This document shows positions 16,888 through 48,100 of a DNA stretch of 53,928 nucleotides, in pieces (the first letter of the stretch is position 1; each line of letters opens with the position of its first letter). Source of the DNA: a virus. The notes below the pieces were generated by a model. The model did not search any database. It was given only the letters and a program-made list of their open reading frames with translations, and had not been told where the DNA came from. Location: IMG/VR virus record IMGVR_UViG_3300045988_144911. One strand, written 5' to 3'. The position numbers and the translations under genes are program-made.

Positions 16888-16909
16888 GTGACAGATTCGT
16901 GACAGATTT
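16888..16909 (+). repeat. two tandem 11-bp GTGACAGATT[CT] repeats (candidate integrase arm sites)
   Basis: Copies at 16888-16898 and 16899-16909; the same TGACAGATT core recurs twice at 17106-17129. Confidence 0.6.
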
Positions 16910-17032: not shown

Positions 17033-17062
17033 TGGTGCGGGAAACGGGACTTGAACCCGTAC
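17033..17062 (-). other. tRNA 3'-end fragment (T-arm, acceptor strand and CCA); candidate attP core
   Basis: Minus strand reads ACGGGTTCAAGTCCCGTTTCCCGCACCA. No matching 5' acceptor strand or anticodon arm is present nearby, and the site lies beside the integrase gene. Confidence 0.7.
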
Positions 17063-17105: not shown

Positions 17106-17129
17106 CATGACAGATTTCATGACAGATTT
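17106..17129 (+). repeat. two tandem 12-bp CATGACAGATTT repeats (candidate integrase arm sites)
   Basis: Copies at 17106-17117 and 17118-17129, overlapping the int stop codon; same orientation as the 16888 pair. Confidence 0.6.
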
Positions 17130-18172
17130 TCTGAAAAACGCTTGAAAACGTCCCTGTAATAGTCCTCGAGCTTATCAAAGAAAATGTCCTTCTTATCCCT
17201 CATGATATGCCCATAAACCTGTTGTACCATGTTCTCTGTCTCATGTCCGAGCATATCCGCGATGTATTTTACCGGTATTCCAAGCATTATCATGACCGAT
17301 GCGGCATAATGACGCAGCTCGTGGAAGGTGTAGTGTGCGCCGGGACACACTTCCCGCAAAACCTTCTGATACCTGTCATATATAACAAGCGGCTTCAGAC
17401 CGGTAATGTACTCAGCTTCCGGGTCACACTGCCTCTTCATGGCTGACTTAAGTACGGAGATCATTCTGACCGTCCGGTTCCCTGCTTTGGTCTTCGTCGC
17501 TTTTTCAATAAGCTGATTGTCTTCGTCCATGACCTTTGCGCGGCGAACCGAAATGATCCCGGACTTAAAATCGACATCCGACCATTTCAAGCCGCAGATT
17601 TCACTCATGCGCATTCCCGCCAGCGCGCCCAGAAGCACCGGCAGTTCTATTTCGGTGTCCCTGACTGCGGAAATCAGCTTTACAACATCTTCTTCGGTCG
17701 GTATGGTGATATCCGGCTTTTTTCTTTGCGGCAAAGTCGTATACAGCACGAAATCCGGTCTGAACATCTTCAGCGACGCAGAAAGAAGCCCGTGGGCGTT
17801 TCTGACGGTCTTCGGTGAATGTTCTGCCGCCTCAAGGTTTACAGCCCTTTGCACATCCTCCTGCGTCAAATCGAAAATGCGAATGTCCCGTAAGCCTTGC
17901 AGATAATTTTTCTGATACCCTTTGTATTCCCTGTATGTCTTCGGCGACAGTACGTTCTTCTTTGCTTCCGCATAACGCGTTATTGCTTCGTCAACCGTGA
18001 TGTTATCCGCGCGGTTGCCTTTTTTGTTTGCATCAAACTGCGCCGCCTCAAGCTGCACGGCTTTTTTGTTTTTCCCGGTAAAGCTCCGGTAATGTGCTTT
18101 TCCGTCCGGATCAGTATAATCCAGCACCCGCGCCCTGTACGACCCGGACGGCAGCCTGTCTACCTTAACCAC
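17117..18172 (-). CDS. int: tyrosine recombinase / phage integrase
   Basis: 351 aa; C-terminal HELRHYAASVMIMLGIPVKYIADMLGH...VYGHI fits the R-H-R-Y catalytic pattern; GTG start. Confidence 0.9.
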   Translation of the reverse strand: MVKVDRLPSGSYRARVLDYTDPDGKAHYRSFTGKNKKAVQLEAAQFDANKKGNRADNITVDEAITRYAEAKKNVLSPKTYREYKGYQKNYLQGLRDIRIFDLTQEDVQRAVNLEAAEHSPKTVRNAHGLLSASLKMFRPDFVLYTTLPQRKKPDITIPTEEDVVKLISAVRDTEIELPVLLGALAGMRMSEICGLKWSDVDFKSGIISVRRAKVMDEDNQLIEKATKTKAGNRTVRMISVLKSAMKRQCDPEAEYITGLKPLVIYDRYQKVLREVCPGAHYTFHELRHYAASVMIMLGIPVKYIADMLGHETENMVQQVYGHIMRDKKDIFFDKLEDYYRDVFKRFSENLS

Positions 18173-19196: not shown

Positions 19197-19361
19197 ATGA
19201 CAGCATCCGAACGCGAAGCCCTCAACCTCCGAATTGCAAAGATGATCAGCTCCCTGACGGACGAACAGTACGAAGAATTTCTTTTCCGCCTCGTTTCCGA
19301 GGTTAACATGAACCCGGAAATCAAGTATAATAATTCAGAAGCCCCGCATATGCGGAGCTGA
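19197..19361 (+). CDS. small protein (54 aa)
   Basis: ATG about 70 nt downstream of the 19100 promoter; reads MTASEREALNLRIAKMISSLTDEQYEEFLFRLVSEV...; too short for the ORF track. Confidence 0.45.
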   Translation: MTASEREALNLRIAKMISSLTDEQYEEFLFRLVSEVNMNPEIKYNNSEAPHMRS

Positions 19362-19528
19362 GAGCATTTTCTTTCGGTCGCCCTACTCCGGTTTGAGGTG
19401 ACTGCACAACCCCTACTGAAAGCTCCGCCAGCAACGCCCCGGTGCGCTCTGTACTTCGTCGCTTGAGTACAGTATACACCTGATTTTGCGATTTGTCAAT
19501 ATTTTTTTACAATAAGGAGAAACCAAAA

Positions 19529-20556: not shown

Positions 20557-21123
20557 TCATTTGAATGCAAACGCAAACAAAACATCAAGAGCCACAAAAA
20601 CAATATATGCAACTATTCTTACACGCCCATTGATTATTTCGCGTCGTGAATAATCCTCAAACATATCAAGAGCAAGTGTATCATATACTATCTGATCACC
20701 GATTCCTTCTTTCGCCATCGTCTTTAATGTGTCCAGCGTTCTATCCGCTTTGTTTTGCGCAATGTTAAGGTTTGCGAAACTAAGCGCATAGCATATCATA
20801 AAACTCGCAACGAGGCTCAATGCAGTGACCAACAAATAAAGAACTATCTGCCCCGAACTTCTAATAATTCTATTTCTAATTGTAAAAGCAACACTTGTAA
20901 GCCCCAACAATATTAGCATGAAAACGATTTCCGCGTTACCGTTATACTTTTCAAGCGGTAATAACGCCCTGTCAATTTGGTCTCTTATGTTTTCGTTTTT
21001 TACGTTTTTCACAATCTCAGAAAAATCCATAGACCGATCGAAAAAATGTAAAAAAGACAGGGTTAAAAGAATCACCACCATGCCAATCGTAGATTCCGCC
21101 ACCGTAAGCCAAAACGCCTTCAT
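20557..21123 (-). CDS. multi-pass membrane protein (188 aa), repressor operon
   Basis: About five hydrophobic segments; its start overlaps the repressor stop (ATGA); visibly AT-rich. Confidence 0.7.
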   Translation of the reverse strand: MKAFWLTVAESTIGMVVILLTLSFLHFFDRSMDFSEIVKNVKNENIRDQIDRALLPLEKYNGNAEIVFMLILLGLTSVAFTIRNRIIRSSGQIVLYLLVTALSLVASFMICYALSFANLNIAQNKADRTLDTLKTMAKEGIGDQIVYDTLALDMFEDYSRREIINGRVRIVAYIVFVALDVLFAFAFK

Positions 21124-21458
21124 TTCTCCGCTCCCAATACCGCTTCAAGAACTTTCTCAATCTTAACTGCATCCTCATCAGACAAGGACGCGATCATATC
21201 CATAACCTTCACCCTCTCCTCCGACATCTCAACTCCCCTCCAAGATGTTCCGGAGGCTTTTTTTGTTTCTCCCAGAAGGCTGTCAACAGATACGTCAAAA
21301 TATCCGGCAATTTTCAACAGCGTCTTGTGATGAGGAACCTTTCCCTGTTTCCATGAAGTTACAGCTCCGCTTGAACAGCCCATTTCTTTCGCCACCGCAT
21401 TGGGGCTTTTTTTGATTTTCAGACAAAGACTATAATACGCTTCCCAGAACATAATCAC
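21120..21458 (-). CDS. CI-like XRE-family repressor
   Basis: HTH SPNAVAKEMGCSSGAVTSWKQGKVPHHKTLLKIAGYFDVSVDSLLG; divergent from the early operon; RBS AGAGGTGA. Confidence 0.8.
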   Translation of the reverse strand: MIMFWEAYYSLCLKIKKSPNAVAKEMGCSSGAVTSWKQGKVPHHKTLLKIAGYFDVSVDSLLGETKKASGTSWRGVEMSEERVKVMDMIASLSDEDAVKIEKVLEAVLGAEK

Positions 21459-21497: not shown

Positions 21498-21526
21498 TTG
21501 ACAATCTCAACAAGTTGAGATATAAT
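21498..21526 (+). promoter_or_regulatory. early promoter, perfect TTGACA-17-TATAAT with palindromic operator in the spacer
   Basis: TTGACA at 21498-21503, TATAAT at 21521-21526, operator TCTCAACAAGTTGAGA at 21505-21520. Confidence 0.8.
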
Positions 21527-21707: not shown

Positions 21708-21917
21708 ATGAACCTCGATCTCAAAACCCGCATGGTAAGACTTCGACTTAAGCAGAAGGATGCCGCAGAAATGCTGAACCGTTCCGGTCTGAATACCTGC
21801 AAATCAGAAGTATCGGTGGCAATAAACAGACTGCGCGATTATCCCAAGCTCGACGTGGTCAGAAACGAGCTGTCAAATCTTCTGACAAAGCTCGAACGCG
21901 AAAGGGGAATAAAATAA
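21708..21917 (+). CDS. first early gene, small DNA-binding-like protein (Cro position)
   Basis: RBS AAGGAGG; 69 aa; reads RLKQKDAAEMLNRSGLNT... Confidence 0.55.
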   Translation: MNLDLKTRMVRLRLKQKDAAEMLNRSGLNTCKSEVSVAINRLRDYPKLDVVRNELSNLLTKLERERGIK

Positions 21918-22180
21918 TGCCCCGCATATCTAAGTCCGAAGAGGATCGGCGGTACGCTTCGGTCATAAGACACCTTGACGCATACAAAGCCGCAAGATTC
22001 CGGAACGGCGACGACAAAACTGCGGTCGCCTCCGCACTCGGTCTCTCCCCGGCAAGAATGTACCGCATCCTCTCCGGCTCCGCCGACACACTGACACTGA
22101 GAGAGATCATGACCATCGCAAATACGCTCAACATCTCGGTTCCGGCGCTGCTCGGCTGCCGGGAGGAAAGGACGATATGA
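21917..22180 (+). CDS. HTH protein (87 aa)
   Basis: TAVASALGLSPARMYRILSGSADTLTLREIMTIANTLNISVPALLG. Confidence 0.6.
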   Translation: MPRISKSEEDRRYASVIRHLDAYKAARFRNGDDKTAVASALGLSPARMYRILSGSADTLTLREIMTIANTLNISVPALLGCREERTI

Positions 22181-24907: not shown

Positions 24908-25191
24908 AAGAACAGAACTACATCGTAAGAGCCGACAGAGCAGGAGTGTTCTTCGGCAAAATCAAGGAGCGCAGCGGAAGCGAAGTCACCATGACCGATG
25001 TCCGCCGTATCTGGTACTGGGACGGTGCGGCATCCCTTTCACAGCTTGCCGTCGAGGGAACAAAAAAACCCAAAAATTGCAAGTTCACCATCTATGTTCC
25101 CGAGATGATTATACTCGGTGTGATTGAGATTATCCCCTGTACCGCCGAGGCTGAAGTCAGCATAAAGGAAGTCCCGGAATGGAGAGTGTAA
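24904..25191 (+). CDS. conserved phage hypothetical protein
   Basis: ATGA overlap with the upstream gene; RRIWYWDGAASLSQLAVEG motif. Confidence 0.55.
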   Translation: MKEQNYIVRADRAGVFFGKIKERSGSEVTMTDVRRIWYWDGAASLSQLAVEGTKKPKNCKFTIYVPEMIILGVIEIIPCTAEAEVSIKEVPEWRV

Positions 25192-25841
25192 AAAAGTTTG
25201 TTGCTGTCAGCTACGGCTCCGGCTACGGCTCCGACTACGGCTCCGGCACCTGCGGCGACTACGACTACGACAAAGGCGACGGCTACGGCTCCGGCTACGG
25301 CTACGACTACGACTACGGCAAAGGCGACGGCTACGGCTCCGGCTACGGCAAAGGCGACGGCAAAGGCTCCGGCATCGGCTCCGGCTACGGAATTGCGTCG
25401 TACGACGGCAGAGATGTGCATCTGATTGATGACGTACAGACCATAATAACTGCCGTATTCGGCGGCGCCGCAAAAGGATACATTCTCGAAACTGATCTGA
25501 CTCTCACGCCCTGCTACGTCGCAAAAAGCGGAAACACCTTCGCCCACGGAAATACATTAAAAGAGGCAATCGACGCACTGCACGAAAAGCTCTTTGATGA
25601 TATGCCCGAAGAAGACCGCATCGCAGAATTCTTCAAAGCCCACAGCCCCGGCGTGAAATATCCCGCAAAAGATCTCTTTGTGTGGCACAACAGGCTCACC
25701 GGAAGCTGCGAAGCCGGACGGATGTCCTTCGTCCGCAGCCACGACATAGACCTCGAAAACGATACCTTCACCATAGAGGAGTTCGTCAGCCTCTGCAAAG
25801 ACAGCTACGGCGGAGAAACGATAAAAAAGCTCCTCGGATAA
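25179..25841 (+). CDS. phage protein with Gly/Tyr/Asp-rich repeat N-terminus
   Basis: About 60 aa of GYGSGYG / DYDYGKGDGYGSGYG repeats, followed by a globular domain (CYVAKSGNTFAHGNTLKEA...LTGSCEAGR). Confidence 0.7.
   Translation: MESVKKFVAVSYGSGYGSDYGSGTCGDYDYDKGDGYGSGYGYDYDYGKGDGYGSGYGKGDGKGSGIGSGYGIASYDGRDVHLIDDVQTIITAVFGGAAKGYILETDLTLTPCYVAKSGNTFAHGNTLKEAIDALHEKLFDDMPEEDRIAEFFKAHSPGVKYPAKDLFVWHNRLTGSCEAGRMSFVRSHDIDLENDTFTIEEFVSLCKDSYGGETIKKLLG
25210..25392. repeat. degenerate short tandem repeats (ggctacggctccg family) encoding the GYG tract
   Basis: Visible periodic repeats; every reading frame on both strands is open across the tract. Confidence 0.85.
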
Positions 25842-25858
25842 CCCCTCAGACAGCCTGA

Positions 25859-25903
25859 TGACAGCCGGCAAAGACCGACCGCCCGGCAGAGCGTATCTGC
25901 CCC
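25859..25903 (+). repeat. copy 1 of the duplicated 45-nt element
   Basis: TGACAGCCGGCAAAGACCGACCGCCCGGCAGAGCGTATCTGCCCC; hairpin GGCAGA-gcgta-TCTGCC at 25885-25901. Confidence 0.85.
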
Positions 25904-26207
25904 AAACCCGCAATCCTTTGCGCGCTCACACGAAAGAATTTAATGTTCCGGATATATGAGATTCGGATATATGTGAGAAAAAACGGCACAGGTTGAGAAA
26001 AGACTCCGATATGAGTACCGTAAAACGGGATCGGATGACACCCGGAAAAGGGACGGGGCTGAGAGACAAACGGGCAATAAGAGGTCTTGGCAGTCGGAAA
26101 AAGCAACGACCCTCCGCACAAAGAGGTTAAGGCGGTGACATACGGGAAAGACCATCTGAGGGGAACGGCGCCGTAACCTCAGCGCAGCACACTCAGCGAA
26201 ACGGTGT

Positions 26208-26253
26208 TGACAGCCGGCAAGAGACCGACCGCCCGACGGAGCGCATCCGTCCC
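26208..26253 (+). repeat. copy 2 of the duplicated 45-nt element
   Basis: TGACAGCCGGCAAGAGACCGACCGCCCGACGGAGCGCATCCGTCCC; hairpin GACGGA-gcgca-TCCGTC at 26235-26251. Confidence 0.85.
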
Positions 26254-26530
26254 AGTATCAAGCCTTGCCAAAGTACACGGCGAATGAGCGCGGAGAGATA
26301 TGGCGACACTCCCGCGCCGGAGATGTGACTGTACGGCGTTACCCGCAGACGCTATCACATCAGCGGGACACCGGATCGTAGTTCAATCAGCAGAACGCTT
26401 CGTAACGCACACGCCGCCCGAAAGACTTCCCCGAGCGGCGGGAAGATGTGAAGGTGCAATTCCTTCCGTTCCGACCAGCCGAAAGGCAAAAAAATACCGA
26501 AAAACAATTTCGAAAGGAGATTTCCCCAAG

Positions 26531-26764
26531 ATGAACGCTGCAACACAATGCTTCAAGGTGCTTGAGCATCTGAAGTACATCGGCTCCCTGACACAGGCAA
26601 AGGCGCTTGAACTCTACGGCATAGCCCGTCTGACCTCCCGCGTCAACGACCTCAAGAGAAAGGGAATCGTAATCAACACAAGGACGATCCCGGCAAAAAA
26701 CCGATTCGGCGAGACCGTCCACGTCACCGAGTACAGCTTACCGAAGGGAGAAAAATCAGAATGA
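26531..26764 (+). CDS. winged-helix DNA-binding protein (HTH_39-like)
   Basis: ATG after AAAGGAGA. VLEHLKYIGSLTQAKALELYGIARLTSRVNDLKRKGIVI fits the pattern of this phage HTH family. Confidence 0.6.
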   Translation: MNAATQCFKVLEHLKYIGSLTQAKALELYGIARLTSRVNDLKRKGIVINTRTIPAKNRFGETVHVTEYSLPKGEKSE

Positions 26765-38938: not shown

Positions 38939-39146
38939 ACGCCGTAACGAAGGCGAATATCTTATCGGTTATACTGCTCTTCAGCCGGTTGTAGGTCGAC
39001 AGACTGATGTTCAGCGCAAGCGTAGTCTCAATCCCGCTCTTCCCGCGCCGCAGATACGGTATCACCTCAAGCTCACGGTCGGTAAAACCGCATTCCGGGA
39101 TAAGCCGCTCCCACAGCGCGGACGGATAATCGTACCTCACCATCAC
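38937..39146 (-). CDS. small LuxR/GerE-type HTH regulator
   Basis: FTDRELEVIPYLRRGKSGIETTLALNISLSTYNRLKSSITDKI; its start overlaps the giant gene stop. Confidence 0.6.
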   Translation of the reverse strand: MMVRYDYPSALWERLIPECGFTDRELEVIPYLRRGKSGIETTLALNISLSTYNRLKSSITDKIFAFVTA

Positions 39147-42100
39147 GCTTTACCCGCTTTGCGGAGGACTTTGAGTATGTCCGCCTCGGTGATGCCGTAT
39201 TCTCCGTATGTCTTCAGCATCTTTTTGATGTACGCCGCTCTCTTCGATACGTCAATGTAGATAAGCTGTTCCTTCACTTCCTTCTCCATCTTCCTGTGCA
39301 TCTCGTCGTAAACCTCGTCGTCGGTCTTGGAGCCTCCGTCCTCCCTCTCCCGCCGCTTCATTGCGGATTCGATGAAGTCTTCAAACTCCTTGCCCTCAAG
39401 ACTGCTCACGGCGGATACAGAGCTTACAATGCTGTTCACCTTAGCCTTGTACGAACCGGGATTGACCTTCCTCAGCTCATACAGATCGTCCATCAGAGAG
39501 GATTTCATAACGGCATTCTTTATCTTGGTCTCGGTGTACCCGTGATAAATCATGTCCCGCTTGATCTTCACATAGTCGGAATACCTGCCCCGGTCAACAG
39601 CGTCGCGGAGAACATCGTAATAAGCCTCAGTTACCGCCGCCTTGTTCGTAAGCTCAACGTCCTTCCATGCCTTCAGATAGTTGTACTGAGTCATCGGTGA
39701 GACAAGACCGGAGTCAAATATGATTCTGTCAAGACCCGCCTTGAAATCACGGATTACGTTCTTCGCCGACCATCCGAACAGATTGGATGCCGCATTCACA
39801 ATGTCCTGAAGCATTCCGAGATTCGGACGACCGCCGTTCTGCGAGATGAGATACTTGTTTATCAGCCCTCCGAGGTCGGTAAGAGCCGCAAGATCCATTC
39901 TCTCAACAGTCTTTCCGAACGCGCCGGATTCGATCGCCGTCCATACCGTTTCAGCAAGCTGCCATACGGGAGCAAGCCCTCCGGACAGTATGTCCTTTAG
40001 AGCGTTTTCACTGAACGATTTCAGAATATCGTCCCACAGCTCGTCGTCGTCGTCTCTGTCAAGAGTTCCGCGCCAGAGCGATACAAGCGTTGTTATCGCC
40101 GACACCGCGACCGTGTTCGCAACGGAGGAAGCGATAACCTTGACAAGTTTCTTTTTTGCGCCCGGCTTTCCTCTCGCCGCGTCGTTTATCGCGGAGGTCA
40201 GATATGAATACTGCTTCAACGGTTCGTTCTGGAATGCATACAGGAACTTGCTTGCCGTCCCCGCATTCTGAACAGCCATCGACGAATCAAGCGCCGACTG
40301 AACGACCTGTGTCTTTCCGATGACCTCAGAGAATTTGCTGTTGACCGCTTCAAAGTATTCCTTGCTTCCCTTGGTATACTTGTTCTGCGCGTCGATCTCG
40401 GCTTTGCTCATTCTCCATAGCCTCGACCACGTCCACATATCCGCAAACTCTGCGCCCGAATCCATTGCGTCGTTTATTTTTACGAGAAAGTTTTTCGGTT
40501 CGTTGTTATACAGTTCCTCAAAGCTCTTTCTCGTCATGTTCTCCGACGCGCCCCAGTTCTTCAGCTTTGCAACTCCCGAATGCTCAAGCATTTCGTTCAT
40601 CTCCGCTTTGACCTGCGACGGGCTTAAATCCTTGAAGCTGTTCCATGCTTTAATTCCGGCTGACGAGAATTCCGGCAATGCGCGGAATATCGACATCGGC
40701 TGTTTCAGTACGACTGAGATGTTTTTCGCAACCGCCGCCGCCTTGTAGTTCGACAGCAGTTTTTCGGAAAACGCTTCGACTCCCTGACTTGCATATATTT
40801 CGGTTCCGCTCAGATTGTTGATGAGGTTTCTGTAGAATTTATCTGCCTGACCTCCATACTGCCTTATGAGTGTCTGTTTCAGACTTGTCCCGTTTCCAAG
40901 CCTCAGCGCGTACATCTTCTTCGCGTTGTCAAGCTCCTGCGCAAAGGCGTTGTACTGCGCCATGTTAGTCAGATGCCGTCCGATAACGTCGTAAATGTCC
41001 TCGGCAACAAGTGCTTTTCCGGCGCGTCCGGTTCTCTCTTTGGTAAAGCTCAGACCGAGAAGATTCATTTCGTAGTTCGGATTGTCGGCAATCGCGCGGT
41101 AATCGTCTGCCGTCCTCATCGGGAAGTAGTTCTCCGTCGTGTACTTCTTGTAACCGTACATCGCCATTGATACTTCGTTTCCGAGCCGCGCCGCCTCTCC
41201 GTTCAGGATCGCGGATATCCTGTCAGCACACGCTATCTGCGCGTCAGTCAGAGACCCGATGATCTTGTCTGCGTCAGCCTCGTTCAGAACAAGTTTTCTG
41301 CTCTGCTCGTTGAATACGCTCACTGTTCTGAAAATTCTCCAGTTTTTTGTTCTGTTTTCTTTGGTCTGCACGTCAGCCTTTGCTTTGAATTTTCCAATGA
41401 CAAGCCCGCCGTCTTTGTTGAACAGGCATCTTCTCGAATCCTCCTGATTCAGGAGCAGATGTACCGTCATCAGCTGTGAAGGCGTTGCACGGAGTGTGCC
41501 GGTCGAAAGGTTGAGCGTGATCTCCTTGGCTTTCTTTCCGTGCCACCCCTCCGGGATTCCTTCTTTTCCAATCGCGTCAGACATAAGCGACGACAGCAGC
41601 TCGATGTTCGCTCCGAATTTGTCCTGACACTTTCTGAATGTCCGAAGCTGTTCGTCCATTACGTCAGAATCAATGCCGTTGAAAAATCCGTATGCGTCGA
41701 TAGAACCGTAGTGTACCCACTCAAGCCCTTTTCTGAGAGTGTTAAAACCCGTCAACACCCGCGTTTTTCTGTCCCTGTTTTTCGCAAGCCCGATCTCCTT
41801 CTGCGCCTGCCAAGACTTCGCCGCAAGCCCTTCTCTCGGGTCGTAAAGCCGCTTGATCTCCGCCGTCAGGTGCTTCAGCTGATTGAATATTCCGTTAAGC
41901 TCCTCAAGCTGCGCCGAGGAAAGCTCCGTCAGCTTCTTTCCCTGATTGGCTTCCACCCACGCCGCCATTCTCTCAAGCAAGCCGGAGTCAACGATAAGCT
42001 GCTTCTCCTGAACATTCAGGTCGGTCTCGGCAATGTCAAGCCCGTTTTTGCCGTCCTCTGCCGTTGCGTTATTCGCCGCTTCGATGACCCTCAATATCCT

Positions 42101-45100
42101 GTCGTATACACCCTGATTCGCCACGCTCTTTCCTGTCGTGATGTCAACAGCCGCAAGGAATTCCATAAGCGGCTTCCTCATCGCCTCGGTGAAGTGGTTC
42201 TCCGTCGTCGGACCGGAGAGCATCGACGATGCTTCGGTATACCTGCGCAGCACCCTGTTCCGGAGAATCGTCTGTTTCTGCTTCTCGGAACGGTTTTTGA
42301 ACTGCTCCGCATATTTTTCCTTCAGCGAAGTTATGGCTTTTTCTCTCTGCTCCTTGAGCTGCGCTATCCGCTTACGCATGGCATTTATACTAACCGTATT
42401 TTCCCCGTTGTAAAGAAGCTCGGATATCGCTCTGCCGATGGATTTCTTGACGAGCTGTTCTTCGTAGGAAAGCACGTTGCTTTCTCCGATGCCGTTGATA
42501 CGCATATTTCTCGCGAGGTCGGCAATAAGCACAGCCTGTTCCGTACCGTCTGTTATGTTGTCGGGGAAATACTCCGGATAGATTTCCGACAGCTCGGCAT
42601 ATACCTCCGAAAGAGCGCGTCCCTTCTGCTCATTCACAAGCCCGACGATACCGAAAAGCGATTTCCTGAAATCCGACCACGTTTCAAATCCGGCAGCTTT
42701 CGCAACAGAAGCACGGATCTCTGTCGGAACGAAAATCTTCTCCGTGCGGAGCTTCTTTTTTACGTCTCTCGCTTCGTTGTATTCGTCTCTCAGAGGCGAC
42801 ACCCAATCATATATCTCGTTTTCGATGTCTCCGACCATTGCGGCAAGAATGTCCGCGTCGTGCCTGTAGTCCCTTCCGAGAGCTTTGCCGTCGAGACGAT
42901 TCTCATAAGCATACCGGAAAAGCCTTTTAACCGTGTCCAGAAGCTGTTCTCTCGGAATGCGTTCTCCCGATGTCTCCGAAAGATCCGCGATCCGGTTGAG
43001 AAATTCATTGAATTTGTACGGATATCCGCTCTTGTAATATCTCTCTTTCGAGAATTTCTCAAGCACGTTCTTTATGGCTTTGTCTTCTGCTTCTATGGTT
43101 TCCGTTTCACTTTGTGCAGATTTCACAAGAGAATGTCTCTCGTCAGAGGAATCTTTTTCAATGCTCTGCATAGACTGTGTATTGACAACTGAATCATTTT
43201 GTGATACACTGTTGTCAGAGCGTTGAGCACCTGTATTAACGGAATTCTTCTGAATTCCAAGAGGAGGCGACGCTTTTATTTTTTTGTTCGGTCTCAGACC
43301 GATGTTATAAACATAGCTGTCGCCACCGCTTCTACGGACGTTTGCAAGAAGGTCGTAAACTTCGTTGTCTATCTGCACCGTCTTGACGTAATAATCCCAA
43401 AAGCCAATACCATTGTGCGCAGAATTACTCTTGCCCTGCTCCGCGTTGCTCCCGGTATAATCCGCATTCTCAACAAGTTCAAAGATATCTCCGTCCGCGC
43501 CTGCGCGGATTTTTGCTTTCCAACCCTTTTCGGAAGACTGATTGTCTCCGTAAATGTTTTTCTTGACATCCGTATCTTCAAACGTTGCATAGTACGCATG
43601 ACCGTTCCGGATGAATTTCGCGGTTCTTCCACGGTAGTCATTCTTCATGATCTCCTCAAACCGCTTCATTCTTTCCTTGTTCGTGAGATTCTTTATGTCG
43701 TCGCTTGTTTCGTATACCTCAATTCCGTCTTTGTTCGTTCCGGCAAGCGACCACCGTATATCCCGGTTCCCGCTGTCAAACCTCTCGGTAAGCGGAATGA
43801 CGTTGCCGCTGTCGTCGTAGGTTATCGGGTCGGCGGATTTGACCTGTTCGGAACTTCTTATGACGTATGAAAATCCGCGCGAAACCGGCTTTCCGTCAAC
43901 AAGGTCGCCGCCCTCGTCAAGGATTATGCTGTCATAATCAAGCCCGTTTTCGTCAATGAATTCCGCAATGTCATATCCGTCAGTCCAGTCGGGAAGCCCG
44001 GATTCCTGAACCTTGCTCAGCCCGTATTCGGAACGCATTTTATCAAAGATTTCCCGGCATTCCGGTTTCCTTGTGTCAAACGCGTTTCCGAGGTTGGCGT
44101 AAACTTCATAGAGAGAACTATTGTCTCCGGGTTTTGCATAACGGGAGGCATATTTTTTGTTCTCGGTGAAATACGACCAGTCGCGGAACTCGGTAAAGCC
44201 GCCGCCCTTCTTTGAGCCGTGCCAGAACAGTCGGTCATACCCGTTCGCCTTGGCTGCTTCATCCACAAGTCTGCGCTGTTCTTCGGTATCGCCCGATTCC
44301 GCCGCCTCGTCAACAAGCCTCTGCTGTTCCTCGACATTTCCGGATTCAACGGCTTTCATGTACTCGTCGTTCGCACGGGCGAGAGAATATCTGAACCTGT
44401 CAAGCCCTGACTGCTCTCTCACTTCACCGGTCTCGTAAAAGTGTTTTATGTCGTTCACGATCCTTGTGGGGTTGATGTTGCCCTCGTATTCAAGCGTGCC
44501 GACGGTTTTTCCGGTTTCGTCCGAAAGGTCAACAGCAAAATAACCACCGTCCGAAAACTCATTCGCGAATCTGCGGATAGTGGTATATTGCTCTTTTGAC
44601 GGCTCGGTCGAAGCGGAAATGTCAAGTCCGGGAGTCTCCGCCATGATACGGATATTTCCGTCATTCATGAAGCGGACAAGCGCATCGGTTCCCTTGGTAT
44701 TTTCGTATATCGCATCGATGGCTCTGTGGTCTTCACCGCGCGAACCGTAATGCTGCCCCTTCTCGCCCGAGAAATTCAGCATCTTTCCGTTCGGCACGAT
44801 ATATCCCGCGTCGTAGAAATACGGTGTATACCCGAATTCCTTCACCGCCTGTTTGCGGAAATAGTCGGCTTCACTCAGCCCCGATTTTTCGATAGCAGCC
44901 AGTTCTCCGGTGCTTGCTCTGCCCGAACCGCTTTCCGAACTTTTTTCAATGTCGGCTCTCAGCGCATCGCGGCGGTCAACAAGGTCGGCATATCCGGATT
45001 CTTTTCTCCAAGCCTGATATGCTTTCATGCCTTCCGCAATATTGTCGCTGTTTATAGCCTTGCTCAAATCGTCATTTGCTTTTTTGAACGCGTCGGATTT

Positions 45101-48100
45101 CTCAATTTCCCTGATCCGGTTCGTCAGCTCCGTTTCTTCTCTCTGCAGCTCTGCTACGGTGTCAGCGGAGGACGCAAGCGAAAACCTCTTTTCAGGTTTC
45201 GATACTTCGTTCAGTCTTTTTCCGGCTTCCGAACCCGCACCAAGCGCCCCATTCTGGCTATCAGTTCCCCTGTTTCCTCGTCGTAATCCTCCGTTGCGTC
45301 GTTCAGAATCCAGTATTTCGGCACTTTCAGAAACGCCAGCGGTCGGAATTTTTCCGGTCCGGTATATTTCGCCCGGTCTCCTTCCGTTCTCATCCGCATC
45401 AGACAGTCGTCCAGCCTTTCCTCGGTCATTTCGTCTTCTCTTGACCACCTCATCAGCAGATGTCTGTACATCCGTTTGTTCGATATCATAAGAAACTCCC
45501 TCCTTCAGGATCGTATCAATCTGCTTCTTATTATATCCAATTGCTTTGAGGTTGTCAACGATCTTTTTGAAAACCTCGTCATAAGAGAATACTTCGCCGT
45601 TGTTTTCTATCGGCAAAGCCCGACGCTCTTCCTCCGTCATGTCAAGCCGCTGAGATACATTTCTTGCTTCTGTCTCTCCGTAGTTCTGGAAATAATAATA
45701 TTTCGCATAGTCCCCGAGCGAGGCTCCGCCCTTGGCTTCAAGATATCCGATAAGATAGTTCATCTTGTCCTGCGGCTTACTTTCGGCAACGAATTCCGGG
45801 TTGTTCTTTATGAGATCATAGGCGAGGTTCACCGCATAAAACATTCCGGTTTTCGGGCTTGTCCCGCGAACAAACCCCTCTGCCTGCTGAATAGCGTGCT
45901 GCAATTCATGTGAAAGTACATATTTTGCTTTTTCTGAAGTCAGTCCTTTTTTGAGTTCGATGAATTTTCCGTCAGGAGAGTATTTTCCGTTCGTTGCTGG
46001 CGACCCTCCGGTCACAACATCAACCATATGCACCGGAATATCCGCAATCCAAGGATAAGCCGCGAACAGCCTGTCGTGCTTCACATAGTCTCCGACCGTC
46101 TGCGGGTTGTCAACATACCCGTCGGGATTGAACCGCATCTCTTTGTCGCTTATCTCATATCTCCACTTTCCGTCTTTTCCGAGCCACCATCCGGTTCTTT
46201 TTCGGATAGTGTCCATCGAAACTCCGTTCTGATACATCTGATAAGCTCCGCCGAGCGAGTTCAGATCGGCAGTCCGCGAGTTCGCCCCCGCAAGACTGTG
46301 ACGTTTTCCTTCGCCACTCTCAACCGCAGCTTCGCCTTTGACATCCGTCCCGTAAGCCCTCTTAAGCTCCCCGGTCAGCATATCTCTCAGCCTCTCCGCT
46401 GCCTGTCTCTGCTCGACCGCAAGATAGGCATCCCTGCCCCTGATACGCGCAATAAACCTCTCAAGAGCGTTCAGAATCCGTTTGATGATCCCCGGCTTGT
46501 TCCGGTTCATCGCCCAGAAGATGTTCTCCCCGGCTTTGCTTGAATGCCCCATGTCGTCAACCGCCGCGCCGAACATATCCGCCATGATCTCTTCAAATAT
46601 GTACGCATCGTTGACCACTTTCTCGGCAGAAGCGCGTCTCTGCTCCTCCGTGCCTTTCATCTCAAGCATCGCCTGTTCGGTGTACGCGTCAACGTATCTG
46701 CGCCAGTTCTTCTCTTTCTGCGCGTCCTCCGACCTCCACGAACGGTCGTCCGGATGCTCAAGCCGTCCCTTAAGGTCGAATGCGTCATACTGCGTCCCGG
46801 CAACAGCCTTTATGAAATCCAAGGTTAGCCCAGAATCCGCGTGCGCTATCTCATGCGCGATCGTCTGCGTCACCGCACGGTCGAACGAAACACTTTTCCC
46901 GGAATTGAGAACAAACCCGTTTCCGTCCGCCGCCAGTTCAAGTTTTACAACGTTTTCGACCCCGTTCCAGTCTCGGCTGACTTTTATCGTGTTTGTGCTT
47001 TTGTCAAAGTATGCGCCGGACTTCATTCCGTCTGCCGTCTCAACATTGTCAACGACCTCGATGTTGACTCCCATCTTCTTCAGAGGCTTGCGGAGTGAAT
47101 CAACAATTTTGTCAACCTCTCCGGCGCGTACAAGTCTGCCCATCTCGCGGAAATCGTCCATTGCTTTTGCAAGTGAATTGTTCCGGGAAGCGGCTTCTTT
47201 CAGTTCTCCGATCCGCTGTGCTTTTTCCTCTGCCGTAATGGAATCGGAGCTTTCGATGTTCTTGATTTCCTGCTCGATTCCGGCATTCTCGTTTCTGAAA
47301 AATGCGTCCTGTTCCGCTTTGCTGTTGAGGTTTGCAAGTGCAGAAGCGTTCTCTGCCGAATACCTCTCGTCCTGATACGCGCTGAAATCCGCCCTGACCC
47401 GCTTTTTAGCCGTTTCCTGCGTTGTTTTTGTCTCTGATGAGTTAGTACCGCCCTCGCCGGAAACGTTCGCTGCAGGCGATTCTGTGAACCCTGATAGGTC
47501 ACCGCCGTTTATGACATAATTCCTCACCGTCTCAAGAAACCTGTGCTGACGGTTCGTCGCATCAATGGTAGCCTTGGTCTCCGCGCTCTTTACCTTCTCG
47601 CTGTTGCGCAGACGGCTGTTCTCGGCGCGGTTCGCCTGTATCGCCTGATCGATGATGACCGCCGCGTTCTTGTGTCCCTCGGTTGCCGTTTTGCCGCTCT
47701 CAATCGCACTCTGCGCGGCTTTCAGCGTGTCGGATGAGTTCTTTATAATGTCAAGCGTCTGCCGCACGGAGGCGCGTTTCTGCGACACCGTAGTTCCGCC
47801 GATTCTCAGTCCGGTCAGCCGCTCAAACGCCGCGAGCGTACCCCTGTCCTTGAGAATGTTCCGTTCAATGTCCTTGTTCGACAGCTCCCCCATGGAAAGA
47901 AGACTGAACATCTTTTCGTCATTTCCGGAGGTAACGTCAACCTTGGTCTCCTGCGCGCTCTTCGCTTTTTCAAGAACCGCCTGTATAGAATCCGCATTTA
48001 TTTTTCCGGAGGAGATAAGATTCTTTATCTGATTCAGATTGTCAATTGAAGCATCAATGTTCGCGGAAATTTCGGAAGCCTGATTCTTACCATACTTTTT

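Follow-up and report, generated by a model that had tools for sequence, protein, structure and literature searches.

The locus and its genomic setting

IMG/VR virus record IMGVR_UViG_3300045988_144911 is the complete contig of a temperate phage of approximately 54 kb, and this whole stretch of 53,928 nucleotides is referred to below as the window. Between the end of an open reading frame (ORF) for a protein of 220 amino acids (position 25841) and the ATG of a gene with an HTH_39 domain (position 26531) lie 689 nucleotides, 25842-26530, here called the gap. On its 5′ side is a recombination module encoding Gp157/Gam-like, Sak, NinB-like and DUF6948 proteins and then the 220-residue protein. On its 3′ side is a replication module encoding the HTH_39 protein, SSB, a Lin1244_N/replisome-organiser initiator and a Toprim-DnaB primase-helicase. 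These domains confirm the position between recombination and replication genes proposed in an earlier sequence-only reading of the same DNA. The gap is an intercistronic stretch of a long rightward early transcript, built of short non-coding modules. Its real content is a modular spacer, the notable member of which is an anticodon-less mimic of proline tRNA (tRNA-Pro); tRNA-like elements as such are already known.

The genes of the rightward block that contains the gap are all on the + strand, and the block is headed by a perfect sigma-70-type promoter (TTGACA-17-TATAAT, 21498-21526, + strand). Since the interval from 21.5 to 31 kb showed no convincing + strand terminator, nor any + strand terminator-like site of note, the gap is placed inside a long operon. 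No ORF spans it, as the sequence-only reading had held: stop codons occur in all six frames, and relatives differ by insertions or deletions (indels) of 350, approximately 223, 147 and 33 nucleotides, so that no reading frame can cross the gap under any genetic code. An alternative code was considered, as one reverse frame has TGA stops only, and was rejected because neighboring genes end in TGA and because indels of 350 and approximately 223 nucleotides are not multiples of three. Small ORFs within the gap had no PHROG match. The description of the stretch as a GC-rich island did not hold, GC content being 55.3% vs. 51.6% for the window, which is the 80th percentile of 689-nucleotide windows.

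A mosaic of modules that end in CCA

For comparison, approximately 45 distinct versions of the gap were gathered from IMG/VR, ENA and Logan contigs by pattern scans, searches with the flanking proteins, and exact-protein look-ups. These related sequences reveal a mosaic: the modules of the gap vary in presence independently of one another, in 12 arrangements. The window has the arrangement E1-A-E2-B (Table 1), in which cassette A lies between two copies of an element E, and the second copy is followed by the leader of cassette B and a tRNA-like element (TLS). The duplication of E, reported in the sequence-only reading, is real (25856-25904 vs. 26205-26254, with a 33-nucleotide core at 85% identity), and the window holds no further copies. 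In the empty form of the gap, approximately 100 nucleotides long, element E, consisting of TGACAGCCGGCAA(G)AGACCGACCGCCC, the hairpin and CCA, is followed directly by GCCGAAAGGC, an A-rich stretch, AAGGAG, and ATG. The minimal layout, found in L159-type loci, consists of a stop codon, 4 nucleotides, the hairpin, ACAC, TLS, CCA, GCC-GAAA-GGC, and a ribosome-binding site. A further cassette, C (147 nucleotides), was seen in relatives only (L215, L220 and L225-227); this cassette is unrelated in sequence, yet its end too is a perfect hairpin, GCAGGA-CAAGAT-TCCTGC, followed by ACCA.

Table 1. Features of the gap, including the untranslated region (UTR) at its 3′ end, in order along the window.
Feature	Positions	Strand	Basis or remark
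Element E copy 1, 5′ part	25856..25884	+	Direct repeat; TGATGACAGCCGGCAAAGACCGACCGCCC
Hairpin 1, GGCAGA-GCGTA-TCTGCC, then CCA	25885..25904 (hairpin 25885-25901)	+	Covariation, variant table
Cassette A body, 300 nucleotides, 63% purine, optional	25905..26204	+	Comparison of relatives
Two 13-nucleotide repeats, CGGATATATG(A/T)GA, 15 nucleotides apart, within cassette A	25949..25976	+	Repeat search; no other copies in the window
Candidate basic 39-codon ORF (MSTVKRDRMTPGKGTGLRDKRAIRGLGSRKKQRPSAQRG) in cassette A	26011..26130	+	Read from the sequence
Element E copy 2, 5′ part, with a one-base insertion (AAGAG)	26205..26234	+	Direct repeat
Hairpin 2, GACGGA-GCGCA-TCCGTC, then CCA	26235..26254 (hairpin 26235-26251)	+	Common resident variant
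Cassette B leader, 117 nucleotides, optional, nearly invariant	26255..26371	+	Comparison of relatives
TLS variant 1: 7-bp acceptor stem, D arm, 40-nucleotide arm, T arm, A73, CCA	26372..26477	+	Rfam tRNA model
HTH_39 5′ UTR: GCC-GAAA-GGC hairpin (26478-26487), A-rich stretch, AAGGAG (26514-26519)	26478..26530	+	Sequence

Module junctions are exact and fall directly 3′ of CCA, with no spacer. The CCA of E1 is joined to AACCCGC of cassette A, while that of E is joined to GTATCAAGCC where B follows and to GCCCCAAGCG where C follows. Cassette C meets B as ...TTCCTGCACCA and then GTATCAAGCC. In the empty form ...TCCGTCCCA is joined to GCCGAAAGG, and the same GCCGAAAGG follows ...CGTTCCGACCA at the end of B. 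As these junctions show, every unit ends in a stem and then CCA or ACCA. A perfect 6-bp hairpin immediately 5′ of CCA is rare in the window, where it is found at 4 of the 511 + strand CCA sites, and two of the four are the copies of E. The HTH_39 5′ UTR unit stands directly after the last CCA in every arrangement.

The region is recombinogenic, as seen in swapped upstream genes, inserted homing endonucleases, and a large deletion in L164. Homing-endonuclease genes were located in three relatives (L215 1228-1794, L249 479-1045 and L221 3209-3766; NUMOD4 with HNH_3, and HNH/HNH_5), one of them splitting a small zinc-ribbon/HNH-like gene 5′ of the gap and another lying 3′ of the SSB gene; such insertions fit the heavy mosaicism of the region. 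In L164, a related contig of 7.9 kb, the deletion has produced a fusion (at 2278-2454) in which the homologue of window gene 21917-22180 runs into the final 43 nucleotides of the B leader after codon 29, and the whole recombination module has been lost. The resulting L164 ORF had raised the possibility that the B leader is a gene remnant, which was rejected because only the 29 initial codons of the 21917-22180 homologue, joined to the leader by the deletion, account for this ORF. The same contig carries a FuFi-1 RNA (RF02986, 112.5 bits) at 1638-1804 on the - strand. In L011 the hairpin of E is chimeric (GGCAGA...TCCGTC), and this locus clearly appears to be the product of an E1 by E2 crossover that deleted A from an L149-like phage. 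It is proposed from such comparisons that the modules are reshuffled among co-circulating phages by recombination between E repeats of 46-50 nucleotides and by deletion or insertion at shared CCAG ends.

The exact abutment of modules after CCA could instead mean that they are small mobile units, either non-autonomous DNA or retro-inserted RNA, with a specific insertion point 3′ of a hairpin-CCA. Candidate models are integron cassettes, IS200/IS605-type hairpin elements, and cDNA of CCA-ended RNAs; the terminal stem and CCA of each module would recreate the target, and cassette A is flanked by direct repeats of 46-50 nucleotides. The resemblance to integron arrays, the attC-bounded cassettes of which sometimes lack an ORF, extends to a head-to-tail, spacerless order, hairpin-forming ends, and combinatorial content among relatives. 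However, the hairpins of the gap measure 17-18 nucleotides rather than 57-141, the join is CCA/G with no RYYYAAC or GTTRRRY core at any junction, and the only integrase found is a tyrosine enzyme of the Phage_integrase family, encoded next to the attP-like fragment described below. The junctions are equally readable as deletions, either at CCAG/CCAGCC microhomologies or across the E repeats, and L011 is a clear example of E1 by E2 origin. No module was found outside the gap locus in the sequence searched, which included GenBank phages, and neither a reverse transcriptase, an integron-type integrase nor a Y1 transposase appeared among the minority of window ORFs that were scanned. The G.U intermediates of the E hairpin described below also suit RNA better than recombinase half-sites. 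Mobility of this kind is therefore considered quite doubtful.

The modular anatomy bears equally on the suggestion, made in the sequence-only reading, of a single large RNA of the GOLLD/ROOL type. Like these RNAs, the gap is long and non-coding, belongs to a genome of prophage type, and has a tRNA-related element close by. It differs in consisting of independent pieces of 50-300 nucleotides in 12 combinations and in its ordinary folding, with + strand z scores between -0.2 and -1.5 for the whole region, A, the B leader and C (minimum free energy of the whole gap, z = -1.5). A sensitive Rfam scan of 25700-26700 to E = 10 returned only tRNA and two chance matches, with no match to the GOLLD or ROOL model, and the idea was abandoned. 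Scans of the whole window with Rfam returned only the drum RNA motif (RF02958, an orphan), a full-length match at 19359-19464 on the - strand (65.5 bits; gathering score, 43). This match belongs to the lysogeny-side region, and promoter-like sites occur close to it at 19499-19471 on the - strand. Other structures put forward for the gap fared no better. A long-range pairing of 25921-25928 with 26285-26292 would join cassettes A and B, each of which is found without the other, and the three substitutions in its arms (25922, 26288 and 26292) are not compensated; the local stems at 26155-26181 and 26322-26361 are without covariation.

A tRNA-like element that lacks an anticodon

The most informative feature of the gap is TLS, which was missed in the sequence-only reading. 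In a sensitive scan of a short stretch, the Rfam tRNA model (RF00005) matched 26372-26474, followed by CCA, with 40.8 bits vs. a gathering score of 29, and scores in relatives reached 45.4 bits (L225) and 42.4 bits (L164). The alignment places 40 nucleotides at the anticodon loop, where 9 are expected. Because of this 40-nucleotide arm, TLS is dropped by whole-contig Rfam scans in both gathering and E-value modes and by ARAGORN, and only scans of short stretches give it a score above the tRNA gathering threshold. ARAGORN reported no tRNA in the window and only a ‘tRNA-??? (ga)’ in L164.

Three variants of TLS are found among relatives. Variant 1, as in the window, has the 40-nucleotide extended hairpin arm, while variant 2 has a short CCGC-ACGCG-GCGG hairpin in place of the anticodon arm. 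Variant 3 has a T arm of GTCGG-TTCAACT-CCGAC, a D stem of GCTC/GAGC and an acceptor stem of CGGAACA/TGTTCCG; it has a loop of 5 or 6 nucleotides together with a long extra arm, and is called ‘tRNA-???’ by ARAGORN. None of the three has a 7-nucleotide anticodon loop, their arms are unrelated, and one of them shows an indel in the loop. The rest of the cloverleaf is conserved as structure: with the variable arm set aside, 96.9% of cells are paired, changes of both partners affect four pairs distributed over the acceptor, D and T stems, and the covariation score exceeds that of every shuffle. U8, A14, G19, U54, C56, A58 and ACCA are present in all three variants. TLS keeps its acceptor half and elbow under purifying selection, without an anticodon. 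Literature searches found no description of this element.

The identity of tRNA-Pro lies in an acceptor with C1-G72 and A73 and in a GG-containing anticodon. The acceptor of TLS starts C1-G72, G2-C71, G3-C70 and has A73 and an encoded CCA, so the acceptor end fits, while the anticodon is absent. The T stem of variant 1 (GAAGG/CCTTC) and its last 16 nucleotides (CGTTCCGACCA) are those of a genuine tRNA-Pro(TGG) gene in an unrelated IMG/VR contig (L241, 6125-6201), and are also identical to tRNA-Pro att fragments; this identity marks TLS as a derivative of tRNA-Pro. Like tRNA-Pro genes, it has a cloverleaf with a 7-bp acceptor stem, A73, CCA and a score above the RF00005 gathering threshold. It differs from them in the absence of a 7-nucleotide anticodon loop, in place of which it has the 40-nucleotide hairpin, the CCGC/GCGG hairpin, or the 5-6-nucleotide loop with an extra arm, and in its location, which is among the protein genes of an operon and not in a cluster of tRNA genes.

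TLS was considered as the phage attachment site, attP, and rejected: it is approximately 8 kb from the integrase gene (17117-18172, - strand), which is directly adjoined by a 3′ fragment of a different tRNA. That fragment (17033-17060, - strand; ACGGGTTCAAGTCCCGTTTCCCGCACCA, comprising T arm, acceptor strand and ACCA) is flanked by repeated TGACAGATT motifs (16889-16908 and 17108-17127) and is probably the attP core. A mini tRNA-like hairpin was also seen in an AT-rich phage (L127, approximately 575-625), directly after a 48%-identical homologue of the 220-residue protein; it consists of AGTCCTGC...GGTGGTTCGATTCCACCGCAGGACT, with an 8-bp acceptor-like stem and a canonical T arm and neither a D nor an anticodon arm, and may be a coincidence or an att remnant.

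The hairpin of element E

The two E copies in the window differ in their hairpins at two base pairs, both fully compensated, as the sequence-only reading had noted, and its inference of selection for structure is supported by covariation across the hairpin contexts of relatives. In 12 distinct contexts, 98.6% of cells are paired, compared with 36-46% in slid-register controls. Pair 2 occurs as A-U (3 contexts), G.U (4) and G-C (5), and pair 4 as G-C (9) and A-U (2); the lone mismatch is in the recombinant L011. Since the G.U forms would be A.C on the opposite strand, the structure belongs to the transcribed, sense (+) strand. The loop is invariably G-N-R-N-A (GCGCA, GCGTA or GCATA), with variation confined to loop position 3, a purine, and position 4. 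On its 5′ side the flank GCCC never varies, and either CCA or ACA follows on its 3′ side. Hairpins of the GGCAGA/TCTGCC type occur on the left of cassette A and nowhere else, and the cassette is always accompanied by one. These patterns show an RNA structure of the + strand, the pairing of which is maintained by purifying selection, and argue that it is functional.

The 5′ part of element E stands directly after the stop codon of the upstream gene in most relatives, and in HNH-type loci that stop codon is the TGA of element E itself. This part is absent from L159-type loci and from L174 and is therefore dispensable for the hairpin. Nearly every arrangement includes the hairpin, which is true of no other piece; L164 is without it, and outside the gap no further copy occurs in the genome.

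Its constancy raises the possibility that the hairpin is a protein-binding RNA of the boxB type, either nut-like or a translational or stability operator, and that the cassettes, TLS included, are passengers. The 6-bp stem, constant loop and conserved flanks are as such a site would have them, and the hairpin lies approximately 4.3 kb downstream of the early promoter and ahead of the replication genes, a placement similar to that of lambda nutR. Lambda boxB is likewise a short stem with a GNRA-like pentaloop, the fourth base of which varies, in an early rightward transcript upstream of replication genes, but its stem has 5 bp rather than 6. No boxA-like sequence was recognized, there is no intrinsic + strand terminator downstream, and no N-like protein was identified, the lone arginine-rich candidate (26011-26130) being encoded in the optional cassette A. 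With the absence of a second copy and the lack of a hairpin in L164, these differences make a boxB-type role for the hairpin rather unlikely.

The cassettes and the B leader

Besides the window, cassette A is present in L231, L232, L149, L167, L174, L095 and L147 and is absent from every other relative. Its folding is ordinary (z = -0.7). The candidate ORF within it has a weak Shine-Dalgarno sequence and no PHROG match, and no gene is called there in relatives; its copies vary little, differing by one indel, an in-frame CGG codon, and by a lone substitution at a second codon position. The B leader exists in 8 distinct versions, each with at most 3 differences from the window copy; 7 sites vary in total, none of them in a compensatory way (folding z = -1.4). 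The leader is absent from L159-type loci, where the hairpin abuts TLS. For cassettes A and C and the B leader alike, there was no Rfam match, no significant folding and no compensated substitution.

Of the tandem repeats described at 25949-25976 in the sequence-only reading, the two copies of the 13-nucleotide motif stand, while a tandem array does not: their count is not above that in shuffled sequence, and Tandem Repeats Finder reported nothing. These repeats nevertheless enter into a possible DNA-level replication element, in which they (with degenerate copies in A) would be iterons, or the hairpins would be priming signals for the primase-helicase, giving an origin or auxiliary origin. The gap does adjoin the replication module, and its hairpins could form in + strand single-stranded DNA too. 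However, L171 has an empty gap and an initiator that is 99.3% identical, and L173, L175 and L217 lack A; A and B are therefore not the origin that the sequence-only reading had suggested. There are only two good repeats, GC content is 51-68% across all modules with no AT-rich stretch for unwinding, and the main structured piece resembles a tRNA, which suggests a role as RNA. A replication element at this site is the least probable of the readings considered here.

The lack of recognizable structure in much of the gap is in keeping with a reading of it as neutral mosaic debris, in which TLS would be a decaying pseudogene of a phage tRNA-Pro, cassettes A and C and the B leader would be what recombination and deletion left behind at a hotspot between gene modules, and the hairpin alone would be functional and unrelated to the rest. 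The cassettes are optional among phages with nearly identical neighboring genes, the recombinogenic character of the region has been described above, and the phage carries Sak, NinB and Gam-like functions. Against this, the stems of TLS change by compensated or wobble substitutions only, while its anticodon arm has been replaced wholesale in three ways, a pattern of stem preservation that is not that of pseudogene decay. The B leader is almost invariant in its 8 versions, and a terminal stem with (N)CCA is common to three unrelated modules. Debris remains an unlikely account, although one with some weight.

Other features of the phage genome

The window also encodes a large terminase, an MT-A70 methylase and a C5 methylase. 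A second sigma-70-type promoter (21669-21641, - strand), with 11 of 12 consensus positions and an extended -10 TG, overlaps the + strand promoter (12 of 12) in a face-to-face arrangement. With an HTH repressor-like gene (21120-21458, - strand) on one side and the rightward early genes on the other, the pair looks like the genetic switch of the phage. The 220-residue protein (25179-25841, + strand) has a low-complexity N-terminal stretch of 70 residues rich in Gly, Tyr and Asp and a conserved C-terminal domain with no Pfam or PHROG match; its total length varies from 201 to 238 residues among relatives. An ORF of 3810 codons (39143-50575, - strand) contains LPD23, ART-PolyVal and weak metallopeptidase domains and encodes a ‘large polyvalent protein’, a kind thought to be delivered together with the DNA. 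A reading of the gap hairpins as N4-type promoters, which a giant virion RNA polymerase would use, was rejected since this ORF encodes a polyvalent protein rather than a polymerase.

In human-gut metagenomes the phage is encountered very often. Among public assemblies, 1102 index blocks contain the exact HTH_39 protein, mostly on contigs of approximately 53 kb; sample labels resemble the names of human-gut cohorts, and the nearest GenBank matches come from human faeces. No similar DNA was found in GenBank phages, and a pattern scan of bacterial genome contigs gave only chance matches in unrelated bacteria.

Possible functions of the gap

The best guess for the function of the gap, offered tentatively, is tRNA-type processing of the early operon transcript. 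Bacterial RNase P reads the stack of acceptor and T arm, the elbow, and the 3′ RCCA of its substrates, and it also cuts some polycistronic mRNAs and tRNA-like structures. Host tRNA-maturation enzymes would treat TLS as a pre-tRNA, with RNase P acting at its 5′ side and 3′ trimming proceeding back to CCA. Such cleavage would split the early polycistronic RNA between the recombination and the replication genes. The upstream message would keep the protective hairpin as its end, the downstream message would begin at the GCC-GAAA-GGC hairpin just 5′ of the ribosome-binding site, and a small CCA-ended tRNA mimic may be released.

Processing signals with a tRNA shape include RNase P sites in bacterial polycistronic mRNAs, the tRNA punctuation of mitochondrial transcripts, and the mascRNA of MALAT1. 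TLS resembles these in having a tRNA shape that does not decode, lies inside a longer RNA and sits where two functional units meet, and in its acceptor/T stack, elbow and RCCA, the features that RNase P reads. It is unlike them in being optional among close relatives and in being accompanied by stem-CCA microhelices.

Several points weigh against processing. The cleavage itself is purely inferred. Variants 1 and 2 of TLS have G55 and lack G18, with G18 and U55 found in variant 3 only, so that the elbow is not canonical. The window copy carries A5 changed to T (CGGATCG/CGTTCCG; 26372-26378/26467-26473), which creates a U.U mismatch in the acceptor stem; this allele is otherwise found only in the near-identical L231 and L232 and is absent from the other 13 distinct sequences. 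With only three lineages of TLS in existence, few independent events underlie its covariation. TLS is missing from many relatives whose flanking genes are near-identical, and processing here is thus not essential. The 6-bp hairpin of E is short for an RNase P substrate. The scheme also leaves cassettes A and C and the B leader unexplained, and RNA processing alone does not account for exact DNA joins at CCA.

The recurrence of CCA ends suggests another use of the same molecules. The gap may carry swappable CCA-ended acceptor mimics, comprising two kinds of microhelix and TLS in three alleles, that are released by host tRNA-processing enzymes and act in trans, although this is improbable. They could be decoys or inhibitors of proteins that read acceptor ends, for example toxins that pyrophosphorylate or extend CCA, and the CCA/G junctions could reflect their exchange. 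As decoys, the processed microhelices and TLS would expose CCA-3′OH, absorb acceptor-end toxins and protect real tRNAs early in infection. Toxins that read the acceptor stem are documented, including the toxSAS/CapRel pyrophosphokinases and the MenT/AbiE nucleotidyltransferases (PMC9712102; PMC11559606; PMC11541572). The three module types that end in a stem and (N)CCA, the retention by TLS of precisely the acceptor half and elbow with loss of the anticodon, and a polymorphism of presence, absence and allelic replacement typical of counter-defense loci are all consistent with this proposal. On the other hand, exposure of the CCA ends and carriage of such toxins by the host are both assumptions of this proposal, a single-copy operon spacer must compete with the entire tRNA pool, and literature searches found no precedent. 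A decoy role is accordingly given little credence, and tRNA-type processing is retained as the tentative choice. Some of these readings are not mutually exclusive.

Significance for phage biology

Phage-borne tRNA genes are commonly attributed to codon usage or to evasion of anticodon nucleases. The tRNA shape conserved here has lost its anticodon, lies between two early gene modules and is present in some relatives and absent from others, which points to a non-decoding use, whether punctuation of the transcript or mimicry of the acceptor end. Similar elements are probably under-reported, because ARAGORN and the default filters of whole-contig Rfam scans miss TLS. The natural variants of the gap (empty, with A, with B, with C, and with the three alleles of TLS) constitute a ready-made allelic series in an abundant phage.

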